Shown here: positions 1,975 through 13,907 of the stretch, in pieces
How positions within the stretch are numbered: the stretch's first letter is position 1
Layout: the number at the start of each line of letters is the position of its first letter
The notes under the pieces: generated by a model
Told to the model about the DNA's origin: nothing
Database searches by the model: none
The model's input: only the letters and a program-made list of their open reading frames with translations
Translations under genes and position numbers: made by a program
Source: a virus
DNA: 13,907 nt
IMG/VR virus record: IMGVR_UViG_3300035698_021910
Coordinates: 1 to 13,907 of that record
Direction: 5' to 3' (one strand)

Positions 1975-2071
1975 AATGTGATTTTGAAAGTCTAAAAAAT
2001 TTTTTCCCTAACGGGAAACCTCTCTCAACTTTTCTTAATTCTAATTATTTAAATTGAATATAAAGTGATAG

Positions 2072-10224: not shown

Positions 10225-11589
10225 TTAACCGTCAACAGTTCCATAAGTATTAGTTATAACAGGAATTTTAGAGCAAGCAACAGCTAAAGCCATTAAATTA
10301 TCAGTCTCAAGATTTCCGTCGGCTCGTTGGTAAGTGGTCATTTCGTCGGCAAGTTCGGGAATATAAGGAGATTGAATTAATCCACCGTCAATAACAGCCT
10401 GAAGATGATCAAGCAAAAAATCTTTATTTCCACCACGGAAATCGACGGGGTGGACTACATCCATACACATTTCCCACAAAGTATCACCGACACCAGTACT
10501 ATCCATAAAAGATTGAGAACCACTTTCAAGTTGGGCGGTCCTAATTTCTTTTTCCATAGACGACGGAGCTTTGATTTCATTTTCTTTATTAAAATTTTCA
10601 CGTCCTTTTTCAGTCCAAGGTAATTGAAAAGCCCAACGCTTAACTATTTTATAAGGTTTTTTTCCTTTTAGAATACGGAAGCCAACAGTTTGGTCAGATA
10701 AACTTCCACGACGACCACGTGCTAAATCCCAACCCTCAATATAATCATAACCATTTTCAACAATATCAGTTAAATCAAGTTTATTATTGAAAAGTTTATC
10801 AACTCTTGAGGCAAACATCATTTCAGCAGTATCAATAAATTTTCCTTTGACAATTTGGTCTATTTTATTTTTACTCCAAGTTGAACAAAGATAATCAAAA
10901 AGTTTATGATCAATATGTGGATTTTCATAGGAAGTACCGCCACGAATAAATCCGCCTTTCCTTTCAATATCATTTTTAATTCGATAATAAGAATTAAAAC
11001 CTTTTGGCGTGGCATAAAAATCAAGTTGGCTATCTTTCCATTTTCTAGTCCTAGGAAGCAAAATTTTTTCGCGAATAAATTCAAGGTGTCTTTCGAGAGC
11101 AATTTCGTCAGCGGAAATATAACCGTATTCTTTACCCTCAATACTTTCACCTTTTCTTTTAGTGGTTTTAAATTCGGTACAAGCACCATTTTTGAAACGG
11201 ATTTGAGGGTAAGGATGATGAACAACATCTTTTTTAATATCACAAAACCAAGTACCAAGTAAGGGACTATGAGAAATTAAAGCAATCATTCGTTCGAGTA
11301 CAAGCTCTGATAATTCTTGAGTAATAGCAACATTTAAAGTTTTATATTTTTCACAATCAAGATAATGATACAATAAAAATCTCAAATGCTTTTTAGCAAT
11401 AACATCAGTTTTGCCCCAACCATTGCCCGGATGCAATAAATTTTCTTTTTTAGTAGAATTTTTAAGCCAATCTAATTGTCCCGGATGACTTTTATAATCA
11501 AGAACCAAATCATCAAAAGCAGACCAATCATTGTCAGTTTCAATAAGTTTCAAAGAGAAAGCTATAATATTTAATATTTTTTTATTCAT
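10225..11589 (-). CDS. terL: Terminase large subunit
   Basis: ORF track (454 aa). Walker A-like HPGNGWGKTD, Walker B-like GYISADEIA, YATPKG coupling-type motif, and C-terminal nuclease-type acidic motifs GWDLARG, MDSTGVGD and ETDNLMA. Confidence 0.9.
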   Translation of the reverse strand: MNKKILNIIAFSLKLIETDNDWSAFDDLVLDYKSHPGQLDWLKNSTKKENLLHPGNGWGKTDVIAKKHLRFLLYHYLDCEKYKTLNVAITQELSELVLERMIALISHSPLLGTWFCDIKKDVVHHPYPQIRFKNGACTEFKTTKRKGESIEGKEYGYISADEIALERHLEFIREKILLPRTRKWKDSQLDFYATPKGFNSYYRIKNDIERKGGFIRGGTSYENPHIDHKLFDYLCSTWSKNKIDQIVKGKFIDTAEMMFASRVDKLFNNKLDLTDIVENGYDYIEGWDLARGRRGSLSDQTVGFRILKGKKPYKIVKRWAFQLPWTEKGRENFNKENEIKAPSSMEKEIRTAQLESGSQSFMDSTGVGDTLWEMCMDVVHPVDFRGGNKDFLLDHLQAVIDGGLIQSPYIPELADEMTTYQRADGNLETDNLMALAVACSKIPVITNTYGTVDG

Positions 11590-11626
11590 TTTTTTAAAAG
11601 TAAAAAAATTATTTCTTCGATAGATT

Positions 11627-11710
11627 TTTGAGTTTTTTTTAAAGATGAAAAGTGAAAAAAGCGTTTGAGTTTTTTTTTAAAAATGAAAAGTAAAAAAGCG
11701 TTTGAGTTTT
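11627..11710. repeat. 2.3 tandem copies of a 37-bp repeat just upstream of the terL start
   Basis: Copies are TTTGAGTTTTTTTTAAAGATGAAAAGTGAAAAAAGCG (11627-11663), TTTGAGTTTTTTTTTAAAAATGAAAAGTAAAAAAGCG (11664-11700) and a partial TTTGAGTTTT (11701-11710). Confidence 0.85.
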
Positions 11711-11780
11711 CTCCGAAATCTTAATATATATAACACCCCCACTCTTTTGTTTTTGCTTTTTAAACATTAAACATTCAATA

Positions 11781-11960
11781 TTTAAACATTTAAACATTCA
11801 AGTTTCAACATTTAAACATTTAAACATTCAAGTTTCAACATTTAAACATTTAAACATTCAAGTTTCAACATTTAAACATTAAAACATTCAAGTTTCAACA
11901 TTTAAACATTAAAACATTCAAGTTTCAACATTTAAACATTAAAACATTCAAGTTTCAACA
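11781..11960. repeat. Six head-to-tail copies of a 30-bp unit (iteron-like array)
   Basis: The unit is TTTAAACATT(T/A)AAACATTCAAGTTTCAACA. Copies 1-3 carry T at unit position 11 and copies 4-6 carry A; otherwise they are identical. A degenerate partial copy lies at about 11759-11780. Each unit holds three AACATT hexamers spaced 8 and 14 nt apart. There are no spacers, so it is not a CRISPR array. Confidence 0.95.
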
Positions 11961-12160
11961 TTAAAGATTAAATAAGATGAAGATATAACAAACAAAGTTA
12001 AATAACATCATTAAATACAATATTGATATTGTACTTAATACTATTAAATAAGATAATAATACAACAAGATTAACAAAATTTAATAAACAAGACATAAATA
12101 ATACTAATTAATATACTATATATAGCCATACAAACAAGTAATATGTAACAATATATAGTA
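11961..12160. other. Extremely AT-rich, A-biased tract; candidate DNA-unwinding or bent region
   Basis: A manual count gives about 14 G and 19 C in 200 nt (about 16-17% GC). A greatly exceeds T on the plus strand, opposite to the coding regions, where the plus strand is T-rich. It directly abuts the 30-bp array. Confidence 0.5.
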
Positions 12161-12332
12161 ATACCACACCGCCCGACATTCAATTCACCTAATAGTCAAG
12201 ACTAAACCGCCCAACATTCAATCTTCCTAAGCACTAATATAGCTTAATATTGCCACAAAAGCTATGAATATATAACAATATAAAGCGATACCACTCCGCC
12301 AAATTACTGATTGACCTAATAACTAAGATTAA
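12138..12332. repeat. Degenerate ~67-bp direct repeat (12138-12205 and 12266-12332) with an extra half-copy (12204-12237), each carrying a CCGCC(C) core
   Basis: ATACCACACCGCCCGACATTCAATTCACCTAATAGTCAAGACTAA aligned with ATACCACTCCGCCAAATTACTGATTGACCTAATAACTAAGATTAA gives 31/45 identical without gaps, by hand. AACCGCCCAACATTCAATCTTCCTAAGCACTAA is a third related site. Confidence 0.6.
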
Positions 12333-12371
12333 TCCGAATAGAACTTCAAATGGATTAACTCCAAAAAGGAT

Positions 12372-12448
12372 GTCTAATTTGATACTCTTTTTACAACTCC
12401 CTCTTCACTTGAAAGTGAACCCGTTGTAAAAAGAGTATCAAATTAGAC
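12372..12448. repeat. Perfect 26-bp inverted repeat (77-nt hairpin or cruciform) with a nested mini-hairpin in the loop
   Basis: GTCTAATTTGATACTCTTTTTACAAC (12372-12397) is the exact reverse complement of GTTGTAAAAAGAGTATCAAATTAGAC (12423-12448). The 25-nt loop contains TTCACT-tgaa-AGTGAA (12404-12419). Confidence 0.95.
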
Positions 12449-12501
12449 TTTATCACTGCGGGATTAGCTCTAATGCTTCCTATTCTGCAATGGTTAGGCA
12501 T

Positions 12502-12527
12502 CATCGCATAATGTATATTAAGCGAAG
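12502..12527. promoter_or_regulatory. Imperfect 26-bp palindrome, copy 1 (CATCGCATAAT-gtat-ATTAAGCGAAG)
   Basis: It is self-complementary and also complementary to copy 2: 12505-12528 against 12621-12644 gives 24 bp with one G.T position. It is followed by TAGCC, as copy 2 is followed by AAGCC. Confidence 0.6.
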
Positions 12528-12621
12528 TAGCCTCAAACTTTAACTTTATTTAAAACTATATCGCGGGGCATTTAACTATAAGATATTACATATCATTTAC
12601 TAAAAAATAAAGCAGTACTAA

Positions 12622-12647
12622 CTTCGCTTAATATGCATTATGCGAAG
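12622..12647. promoter_or_regulatory. Imperfect 26-bp palindrome, copy 2 (CTTCGCTTAAT-atgc-ATTATGCGAAG)
   Basis: Same architecture as copy 1, with centres 120 bp apart. Direct alignment of the 28-nt cores gives 22/28 identity by hand. Confidence 0.6.
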
Positions 12648-12816
12648 AAGCCCACTTTTAACTGCCTGCGTGTACTCTGTTCTTTTACTGTTTATCTAGT
12701 TGGCTTCTGCTAGCTCGTTTTCTTTTGCAAATTTCCTGCTTAGCCAATTCCATATGTGAGAAATTTAAACTTAAATTTAACAAGAAAACTTTTTTTATTC
12801 CTGCCTCGTGTCATTT

Positions 12817-12888
12817 GTAGCTACCGCCCCCCGGTCTTTCCGCCCTGCGGGCGATATTACTTGCTCGTCCCTACTTCCTGCCGGGGCG
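12817..12888. ncRNA. GC-rich nested stem-loop element; candidate structured RNA of unknown class and undetermined strand
   Basis: Palindrome GTAGCTAC (12817-12824). Outer helix CGCCCC (12825-12830) with GGGGCG (12883-12888), or the alternative register CCCCGG with CCGGGG. Inner hairpin CGCCC-tgc-GGGCG (12841-12853). An alternative GGGCGA/TCGTCCC pairing is also possible. Local GC is about double the genome average. Confidence 0.35.
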
Positions 12889-13024
12889 AACTCATCATTC
12901 ATTCCAGCTAGTATTTATTGCAATTTTTTATTTTCAATTAGTCCAAGTCTTTTAATTAAAGGTTATTTACACAACTGCTAAAACTTTTGTGCTTTTAAAA
13001 ACTATCCCTTTTGTTGCACACAAA

Positions 13025-13564
13025 TTAAGTTTTAAATAAAACTGCCTGCTCATTCATTTGTAATCCGTATTTATCAGTCGCTTTTTGGAATACAGCTAGA
13101 ACATCTTTATTGTCTAAATTGTCGCCCTGTAATATTTGATAACGGATTTTAGCTAATTTTTCTAAATCAGAAATATCAATTTTATAGCTATTAGTATTCA
13201 TGGCATTTAAAATTTTATCATAAGCTAGATCAAGTAATTGAACAGTTTTTTGTAGATGAACTGATTGACTGGTGATTTCCTCGAGCGTCTCATTCTTAAT
13301 AATTTTAGTTGCTACATTTCTTTTATAATCAGCATAATTTTTAAAATGACGACATAGGCTAGCAGGCGAAACGCTATAACCAAACTGCTCCGAACACGCA
13401 ATAACTATCTCATCAAATGTTTTCCCGTTTTTTCTTAATTTATGAATTTCAGGTAAATAGCCAGAGTTACAGATTGAACAACGAGCGTCGCATATCTTTT
13501 CGTCAATTCCGCAAGATTTAAGTTGAGAGTCGATTGTTTTTTTTTCTTCGATAGTTTTATTCAT
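13025..13564 (-). CDS. Cys4 + helix-turn-helix DNA-binding protein (179 aa); small-terminase-like or replication/packaging initiator candidate
   Basis: ORF track. N-terminal CX6CX3CX2C cluster, an HTH-like segment GKTFDEIVIACSEQFGYSVSPASLCRHFKNY, and a helical C-terminal half. It is upstream of terL on the same strand but separated from it by 1.43 kb. Confidence 0.4.
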   Translation of the reverse strand: MNKTIEEKKTIDSQLKSCGIDEKICDARCSICNSGYLPEIHKLRKNGKTFDEIVIACSEQFGYSVSPASLCRHFKNYADYKRNVATKIIKNETLEEITSQSVHLQKTVQLLDLAYDKILNAMNTNSYKIDISDLEKLAKIRYQILQGDNLDNKDVLAVFQKATDKYGLQMNEQAVLFKT

Positions 13565-13672
13565 TGTTGAAAGTTATCCACAGCCCTTAGTGAGCGAGTT
13601 TAAAAAAGTGAGAATGATAATGATAGTTATTACTTTAGTAAGTTAGTAGTTAGTTAGTAAGTAACTAACTTA

Positions 13673-13701
13673 AGAGTAACTTTAATTTTGGGATTTGTCA
13701 A
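13673..13701 (-). promoter_or_regulatory. Candidate sigma70-type promoter for the terS-like gene
   Basis: The minus strand reads TTGACA (13701-13696), a 17-nt spacer, then TACTCT (13678-13673; only T1, A2 and T6 match the consensus). A DnaA box lies 3 nt upstream of the -35. Confidence 0.35.
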
Positions 13702-13778
13702 GCCTGTGGAAAAGGGGCTTATTTATCCACCTACTTATCCACAAGGACTAATCCCATAATTTGGGACCTATAAGAATG

Positions 13779-13810
13779 GGGGGCTAAATTTATTATAATG
13801 ATTAGCCCCC
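13779..13810 (-). terminator. GC-capped 9-bp hairpin at the end of the minus-strand gene series
   Basis: GGGGGCTAA (13779-13787), a 14-nt loop, TTAGCCCCC (13802-13810). On the minus strand it follows the stop of CDS 64..279 (across the circular junction) and is followed by AUUCUUAU. Copy 1 (1-30) is truncated by the window edge. Confidence 0.5.
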
Positions 13811-13907
13811 TGTCTTGTCAAATCTTTTCTACAAGATTTTTTGTTAATATTGTTGTGGATAACCTCCGCCATTATTTTGGTTTCCGTTGTTCTGATTTTG
13901 GTTGCCA
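13781..13907. repeat. Terminal direct repeat, copy 2 (exact duplicate of 1-127)
   Basis: Identical 127 nt. It includes the 3' part of the same CDS as 64..127, so it is not an independent gene. Confidence 0.9.
13792..13821 (-). promoter_or_regulatory. Near-consensus sigma70-type promoter embedded in the hairpin (also at 12-41)
   Basis: The minus strand reads TTGACA (13821-13816), an 18-nt spacer, then TATAAT (13797-13792). The -10 hexamer lies in the loop of the 13779-13810 hairpin. Confidence 0.45.

Follow-up and report, generated by a model that had tools for sequence, protein, structure and literature searches.

Genomic context

The window, by which we mean the whole stretch of 13,907 nt analysed here, is a complete virus record. 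It has a terminal overlap of 127 nt and, since this is a common assembler word length, we take the overlap to close the sequence into a circle of 13,780 bp. All genes of the window lie on the minus strand and the hairpin described below, HP-B, is co-oriented with them (Table 1). In addition to the large terminase, the genes encode an SPP1-type portal, an SU10-type capsid protein, a lectin-fold tail protein, an M23/LysM lysin and many small ORFs; Pfam and PHROG searches of the window genes recognised no replication protein. We found no tRNA or tmRNA, and no nucleotide similarity to any of 50,697 phage records.

Table 1 Features of the ORF179-terL locus in the window
Feature	Position	Strand	Description
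terL (large terminase)	10225..11589	-	First late gene downstream of HP-B; Terminase_6N, E = 6e-7
ORF-free region holding HP-B	11590..13024	-	1,435 nt; separates ORF179 from terL
37-bp repeat	11625-11713		Within ORF-free region
30-bp x 7 tandem repeat	11759-11970		Within ORF-free region
127-bp x 2 repeat	12120-12340		Within ORF-free region
Copy GGCGGAGTGG of oriented motif GAGCGGAGCGA	12294..12299	-	Motif downstream of HP-B in relatives
3' flank of HP-B (ATCCTTTTTGG)	12361..12371	-	Window's version of relatives' (T)ACTCCTT
HP-B hairpin	12372..12448	-	Gene-sense strand; 26-bp perfect stem, 25-nt loop (12398-12422)
Inner mini-hairpin in HP-B loop	12404..12419	-	6-bp stem (12404-12409 with 12414-12419), 4-nt loop
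HP-A, twin quasi-palindromic sites of 26-32 nt	12497-12528 and 12621-12652	-	TCGCRTAAYGCAYRTT..GCGAAGT; sequence conserved in relatives
ORF179	13025..13564	-	179 aa, conserved; CxxC..H..H motif, N-terminal DNA-binding-like domain, long helix
Consensus sigma-70 promoter	13792..13821	-	TTGACA-18-TATAAT, 12/12, upstream of ORF179; promoter scan

Neither genetic code 11 nor code 4 nor a TAG=Q code gives a convincing ORF in 11590-13024, and as the two alternative codes open none, the region is not hidden coding sequence. A small ORF beside HP-B was considered and discarded, no conserved one ending at or overlapping the hairpin. The GC content of the region is 0.36 upstream of HP-B and 0.24 downstream, where the sequence becomes AT- and T-rich and C-poor. 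The number of 30-bp units varies between near-identical genomes, with two additional units in a contig (L052) 99.6 % identical to the window, and a related 39-bp repeat made of the same ATGTT-type words is present in relative G002.

Transcripts running into HP-B probably start at the consensus promoter upstream of ORF179. A simple scan of the sense strand from ORF179 to HP-B found no terminator-like site. The evident terminators of this phage are short GC stems with a direct T run, such as TTTCCC-gtta-GGGAAA followed by AAATTTTTT at about 2011..1986. Matches to the DnaA box (TTATCCACA, at most one mismatch) cluster at 13574-13862, just upstream of ORF179 and its promoter and not at HP-B; the placement is the same in G002, G003 and G004, where the hairpin region is likewise devoid of a cluster.

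ORF179 and 11 homologues share an N-terminal domain in which C29, C32 and H73 are invariant and H41 is nearly so, a CxxC..H..H arrangement that suggests a zinc-stabilised DNA-binding fold. The protein has no matches in Pfam or PHROG. Its AF2 model (pLDDT 70, with the N-terminal domain confidently modelled) gave the TerS proteins of G20c and P74-26 as best Foldseek matches with E about 1, and a wider VIA structural search returned generic helical matches only (G20c TerS, Z 6.4, rmsd 13). The original prediction had labelled this gene terS. The position adjoining terL is kept in 11 of 11 viral relatives, in which 670-1,550 nt of non-coding DNA separate ORF179 from terL downstream, while the Foldseek scores leave the identity unproven; by position only, ORF179 is a plausible candidate for TerS.

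A perfect 26-bp inverted repeat upstream of terL

The arms of HP-B, 12372-12397 (GTCTAATTTGATACTCTTTTTACAAC) and 12423-12448, are 100 % complementary over 26 nt and lie 25 nt apart. This is the sole perfect inverted repeat of at least 14 nt with a loop of at most 80 nt in the window, it is single-copy in the genome, and it is unchanged in L052, which derives from a different sample. The tetraloop of the inner mini-hairpin reads TGAA on the plus strand and UUCA on the gene-sense strand, where the mini-hairpin is followed by a purine-rich tail, GAGGGA (12403..12398). The stem has a GC content of 27 % and a T run begins 5 nt past it.

Folded as RNA in the gene sense, the 101-nt region reaches -44.6 kcal/mol (z = -9.8), with none of 200 shuffles as good. 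Folded as DNA, the same length reaches -28.1 kcal/mol on the plus strand and -29.0 kcal/mol on the minus strand (z = -11.7 and -10.8, again 0/200 shuffles), and thus both strands fold equally well. By our own arithmetic, fewer than 1e-7 perfect 26-mer inverted repeats with a loop of at most 200 nt are expected by chance in 13.9 kb. Recomputed pairing and folding therefore confirm the perfect 26-bp repeat, the 25-nt loop and the 6-bp inner stem described in the original prediction, as well as its statement that the repeat is far beyond chance. An Rfam search of HP-B gave only microRNA-precursor models, at 23-28 bits against thresholds of 80-100, and no family was reached.

Relatives and probable host

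Searches with TerL in three collections yielded 11 viral contigs of 13-15.6 kb, 33 metagenome contigs and 8 MAG-binned contigs; no cultured relative was found for TerL. Five of the eight MAG-binned contigs are labelled Parcubacteria, Moraniibacteriota/Moranbacteria or Patescibacteria and therefore, judged by binning, the host of these phages is probably a Patescibacterium. The candidate-host MAGs (G012-G016, reached via L072-L076 and L079) are incomplete. RNase III (TIGR02191) is above cut-off in all five of these binning-linked MAGs and PriA in three, and SbcD (TIGR00619) is detected in none of the five incomplete MAGs compared to 13 of 14 control genomes. In hosts that lack SbcCD, long palindromes would be tolerable (PMC4245961).

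Two contigs deserve separate mention. WBZQ01000313.1 (41.6 kb; L054 and L062) carries two different relatives in opposite orientation, with TerL 62 % and 59 % identical to that of the window, which could reflect tandem integration, a chimeric assembly or a larger element. DAOVOJ010000021.1 starts with a 58-bp perfect palindrome with a 4-nt loop (L074 4425-4544), just downstream of terL at the very end of the 13.8-kb contig; it is probably an assembly fold-back artefact.

The pairing of HP-B is conserved and its sequence is not

At least 13 genomes, with TerL down to 60 % identity (60-80 % for the relatives with such a hairpin), have a near-perfect stem of 17-33 bp with a loop of 21-31 nt at an equivalent position, which lies 290-1,060 nt upstream of terL (Table 2). 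L073, a further relative, has a variant with a small loop. Of the 13 stems, 12 measure at least 21 bp, and several are only 8-17 % GC with the G-C pairs clustered toward the loop end. None of this is visible by nucleotide similarity, a blastn search of the window spacer against the relatives giving no match at E <= 1e-3.

Table 2 Stem pairing and loop length of the 13 independent hairpins
Genome	Stem positions paired	Loop (nt)
Window	26/26	25
G002	26/26	25
G007	30/30	22
L039	24/24	24
L072	24/24	26
L041	22/22	28
L043	21/21	25
G010	17/17	24
G001	23/24	23
G003	21/22	31
G004	20/21	27
L075	24/26	21
L074	30/33	21

When the 13 hairpins are anchored on the loop, 214 of 221 cells are Watson-Crick pairs (97 %) and 2 are G.T. 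Each of the 17 pair positions shows two to four pair types, and the identity of the arms is 0.37, compared to 0.33 for random arms of this composition. From three hairpins we built a covariance model, which retrieved five others at E <= 1e-6 and scored the sense strand of the three founding hairpins about 30 bits above the antisense strand. In the alignment fitted to this model, 94 % of the cells are paired, 22 of 23 pairs have double-sided changes, and the 17 outer pairs contain no one-sided change. Double-changed cells in this model-fitted alignment number 98, compared to 28.9 +/- 4.1 in shuffles (0/500 reach the observed value), and sliding the 3' partner lowers pairing to 42-56 %. Because this alignment was fitted to its model, and because three of its rows are antisense and two of its hits weak, the independent loop-anchored count is our primary figure; a MAFFT alignment of the 13 hairpins, being out of register, was excluded from the counts. 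Across 46 long hairpins we found 36 mismatches, 6 of the G.T type, 3 of the A.C type and 27 others, so that G.U is not enriched.

Selection keeps the pairing rather than the stem sequence. Since relatives preserve the pairing through compensatory change, HP-B is a selected structure, and the search for such changes proposed with the original prediction turned out strongly positive.

The loop is organised as well. Most copies consist of 1-5 nt, a GC-rich Watson-Crick mini-hairpin of 6-8 bp and a purine-rich tail, the latter always on the 3' side of the sense strand, so that loop orientation is the same in all 13 hairpins. G001 and G004 share one mini-hairpin, CTGGCT-TTTT-AGCCAG, and that of G003 is nearly the same, despite different outer stems; L041 has the compensated variant CTGGTT/AACCAG. 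A search with the inner-loop motif CTGGCTTTTTAGCCAGGA found family members plus one chance match in another phage contig, apparently coding and devoid of the outer palindrome.

Several specific identities were considered for the hairpin and discarded. A pseudoknot between the AGGAG tail of the loop and the ACTCCT flank would need a linker of 1-2 nt to span a 24-bp helix, which on geometric grounds it should be unable to do. A rolling-hairpin or flip-flop telomere disagrees with the constant loop orientation, and no resolvase-sized gene was recognised. For an integron attC-like site, the GTTGT/ACAAC boxes lie at the loop end and not at the outer end, and they are missing from the relatives. Finally, a promoter at the hairpin is not supported, as the ATAAAGG flank has no consistent -35 element before it.

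Oriented motifs and other elements in the spacer

Relatives partly share the flanks of the hairpin, ATAAAGG on the upstream side and (T)ACTCCTT on the downstream side; in 34 upstream regions, ACTCCTT is found 12 times in sense and never in antisense. Further downstream lies the strongly oriented motif GAGCGGAGCGA: GCGGAGC is found 41 times in sense and never in antisense in the 34 regions, an 18-fold enrichment compared to the remainder of the genomes. The motif GAGCGGAGCGA is present in the spacers of all 12 full genomes, sometimes in tandem (G011) and sometimes exposed in the loop of a long hairpin (L040). It contains AGCGG, and a Chi-like reading was tried and rejected: GCGGAGCG is only 1.3-2.7 times its control in the candidate-host MAGs, about one per 20-50 kb, which is too rare for a Chi-type signal.

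Upstream of HP-B sits HP-A, whose arms, unlike the HP-B stem, keep their sequence. The twin sites are able to pair together over a spacer of 40-95 nt in the window, G001-G004, L039, L041 and L072, and changes are mirrored between the copies, for example CGCGAAG/CTTCGCG versus CCCGAAG/CTTCGGG in L072. HP-A could represent RNA or DNA pairing, or two inverted operator sites.

In every genome examined the hairpin stands at a compositional boundary, the GC content being 0.36-0.52 on its upstream side and 0.24-0.38 on the downstream side, where the sequence is T-rich and C-poor. Across 12 genomes, the ORF179-terL spacer contains 20 long hairpins in 14 kb and the remaining sequence 4 in 133 kb, a 48-fold difference in density. 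Some relatives have three to five such hairpins in series. In L041 a second hairpin (1960-2502) likewise contains a nested mini-hairpin, ACCTG-TTTTT-CAGGT, and in G001 the next hairpin (spacer 610-909) encloses a promoter-like TTGACA-17-TAAATT whose -35 falls in the stem and whose -10 falls in the loop. Five relatives have promoter-like sites scoring at least 10/12 in the ORF179-terL gap solely downstream of the hairpin; the window has no promoter of at least 10/12 between HP-B and terL.

What HP-B may do

The best explanation of these observations is that HP-B is a structure-selected cis element at the boundary between an early unit and the late operon. The early unit would be composed of the promoter at 13821..13792, ORF179 and the GC-rich untranslated stretch, and the late structural operon would start with terL. 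We tentatively favour HP-B being an RNase III-type processing hairpin of an early-to-late read-through transcript, a reading that we hold to be possible rather than probable. Transcripts from the early promoter would enter the ORF-free region and fold into a perfect dsRNA hairpin of 26 bp, which host RNase III would cut. The cut would split the upstream message from the downstream RNA and leave defined, stem-protected ends, as at the early intercistronic sites of T7. The conserved nested loop and purine-rich tail may serve a second function, for example as a protein docking site.

In idealised form, the substrate of E. coli RNase III comprises 22 bp, corresponding to two A-helical turns, and T7 early RNA has five such signals (PMC3867540). 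With 26 bp, the window stem exceeds the length of about 20-22 bp of dsRNA given for such substrates (PMC3867540), and by inference a perfect RNA helix of this size would be expected to be cut in such a cell regardless of other roles. RNase III processing is consistent with pairing that is conserved without sequence conservation in 13 independent hairpins, with stems of at least two helical turns, and with RNase III in 5/5 candidate-host MAGs. The loop asymmetry and the flanking motifs (12:0 and 41:0) keep one orientation with respect to transcription, the genes are co-oriented behind a consensus promoter, and the scan finds no terminator before the hairpin. The position at a compositional boundary and the downstream-only promoter-like sites of five relatives fit as well.

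Other properties are not predicted by RNase III processing. G.U is tolerated no more than other mismatches and there are zero one-sided changes, which is unusual for an RNA helix; the enzyme requires neither a conserved nested loop nor a fixed loop orientation; several stems are very poor in GC; and the long palindromes, tandem repeats and operator-like sites of the same region look like DNA-level features. The near-absence of mismatches and of G.U is best explained by template-switch correction of quasi-palindromes during DNA synthesis. Template switching copies a change from one arm to the other in one step and extends arm identity (PMC3820800). As it can explain perfect pairing under an RNA or a DNA reading, the argument from missing G.U is weakened. 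Given that no promoter of at least 10/12 lies between HP-B and terL, cutting would detach terL from the one promoter evident for it, unless there is a late promoter of non-consensus type. The RNase III site between terS and terL that headed the original prediction thus stands as the most economical reading in view of orientation, stem length and host rnc, while the scarcity of G.U, the conserved nested loop and the AT-rich stems do not follow from such a site by itself.

Several of these same properties are accommodated by a DNA-level landmark, that is, a single-stranded DNA hairpin or extruded cruciform recognised by its shape for replication or packaging, a serious possibility that we nevertheless consider somewhat improbable. 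It could serve as a lagging-strand priming signal, similar to primosome-assembly sites or single-strand origins, or as a structure-specific entry or cut site for the terminase, and the central GC-rich mini-palindrome would nucleate the folding of the AT-rich arms. Strict Watson-Crick pairing with no wobble enrichment and no one-sided change in the outer stem, equal folding of both DNA strands (-28 and -29 kcal/mol), and very AT-rich stems with G-C pairs at the loop end around a GC-rich nested hairpin all argue for DNA. So do the 48-fold density of long hairpins in the spacer and the variable-copy tandem repeats and conserved operator-like palindromes that accompany them. No replication protein is recognised in the genome, PriA is found in 3/5 candidate-host MAGs and SbcD, a subunit of a hairpin-cutting nuclease, in 0/5, and a fixed loop orientation suits a function on one strand of single-stranded DNA. 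A landmark of this type was already listed in the original prediction and is a live rival; the DnaA boxes, however, gather upstream of ORF179 and not at the hairpin. In addition, a non-palindromic centre of 22-31 nt makes cruciform extrusion from duplex DNA kinetically costly, and the priming signals of this kind known to us come from ssDNA phages and plasmids and not from tailed dsDNA phages. Perfect pairing, moreover, can arise mutationally whatever the function (PMC3820800). It is conceivable, though we think it rather unlikely, that HP-B is a self-perfecting DNA palindrome acting as a shape-only landmark. The conserved GC-rich mini-hairpin would then nucleate the fast-evolving AT-rich arms on one strand, and the resulting T-shaped hairpin would be read by PriA/DnaG, RNA polymerase or terminase.

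We give considerably less credence to a transcription stop or insulator, a role in which HP-B would terminate the early transcript or prevent read-through from reaching the late promoter and packaging region, perhaps acting bidirectionally. The boundary position and the downstream promoters of some relatives would suit it, and in G003, G004, L039 and L041 the 5' arm begins A-rich and the 3' arm ends T-rich, as in bidirectional terminators. Yet the evident terminators of this phage have their short GC stems directly before T runs, and the hairpins of the window, G007 and G010 have no adjacent T run. In intrinsic terminators the stem is short and GC-rich, the loop has 3-8 nt and a T run follows within 0-2 nt; HP-B, with its 26-bp stem and 25-nt loop, is far from that consensus, and the scan makes no call. 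Equally improbable in our view is that the element has no function of its own, quasi-palindromes simply arising and perfecting themselves by template switching in a loosely constrained spacer of hosts seemingly without SbcCD. This would account for SbcD in 0/5 candidate-host MAGs, for the many different palindromes in the spacer, and for arm identity being extended by template-switch mutations (PMC3820800). It does not account for an architecture of stem, loop, usually nested hairpin, oriented tail and flanks that recurs in at least 13 genomes, or for CTGGCT-TTTT-AGCCAG being shared by G001, G004 and nearly by G003 when their outer stems differ. Least probable by far is an RNA decoy mimicking a CRISPR repeat or repeat:anti-repeat duplex in the manner of an RNA anti-CRISPR, which the original prediction had raised on the arm ends GTTGTA.../...ACAAC. 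These ends are its only support and occur in the window genome alone. The arms of relatives are unrelated and differ in every one, most being A/T runs such as AAAAAAAGAGAATTTTAAAAAAGC; HP-B is single-copy, its Rfam matches are sub-threshold microRNA noise, and no HP-B arm was found within 3 mismatches in 401 Patescibacteria genomes. The decoy reading is not supported.

Significance

The phages concerned are among the smallest tailed ones and appear to infect Patescibacteria, whose phage biology is hardly known. About 10 % of the genome is devoted to one non-coding region, in which HP-B is the clearest selected element, with a stem sequence that has completely turned over among phages and is still paired. 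If HP-B is an RNase III site, a minimal phage would rely entirely on host enzymes to part its early expression from the late. Should it instead be a DNA hairpin, it would point to a priming or packaging signal independent of sequence, something new for a tailed dsDNA phage; as a shape-only landmark, it would allow a 13.8-kb phage to start lagging-strand synthesis or packaging in SbcCD-less Patescibacteria. Under either reading, the hairpin is a compact target that can be tested heterologously for viruses not yet culturable.

Comparison with known systems

The HP-B element is a variant of known structured cis elements, without a described family, in a phage group without a cultured member. The processing sites of T7 contain an internal loop that leads to single-strand cleavage, and they tolerate non-Watson-Crick pairs. 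Like the RNase III signals of T7 early RNA (R0.3-R1.3; PMC3867540), HP-B is intercistronic, measures about two helical turns or more, would lie in a co-directional phage transcript, is defined by structure and would rely on a host enzyme. Unlike them, its stem is perfect, the stems of the family are often very AT-rich and enclose a conserved nested loop, the non-coding region is 0.7-1.5 kb instead of a short gap, and cleavage is only inferred.

Primosome assembly (n') sites, as in phiX174 and ColE1, and the single-strand origins of rolling-circle replicons are long, orientation-specific DNA hairpins with little sequence conservation. Both are structures recognised by host priming proteins, in replicons with few or no replication proteins. 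HP-B resembles these sites (PAS/sso) in being orientation-specific, in keeping structure over sequence and in folding as single-stranded DNA, and PriA in 3/5 MAGs speaks to feasibility only. In contrast to HP-B, n' sites and single-strand origins are usually imperfect multi-loop structures and come from ssDNA phages and plasmids, and no CS-6/RSB-type boxes are established for HP-B.

In the boxB of rrn operons the structure is conserved and the sequence is not, and boxB stems are about 5 bp long. HP-B is similar to the elements of processive antitermination, lambda nut boxB and rrn boxB with linear boxA, in combining a hairpin with an oriented linear motif between early and later genes. It differs in that HP-B-type stems are 17-33 bp, no N-like protein is identified and GAGCGGAGCGA has no resemblance to boxA.

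The element also resembles the palindromes that are attacked by SbcCD and perfected by template switching, being perfect, interrupted and hairpin-forming on single strands (PMC4245961, PMC3315005, PMC3820800). A symmetric change made in one step explains the absence of one-sided substitutions. Studies of long palindromes treat them as hazards (PMC4245961, PMC3315005, PMC3820800). Unlike such hazard palindromes, HP-B keeps a constant position and has a conserved centre, a combination that implies use.
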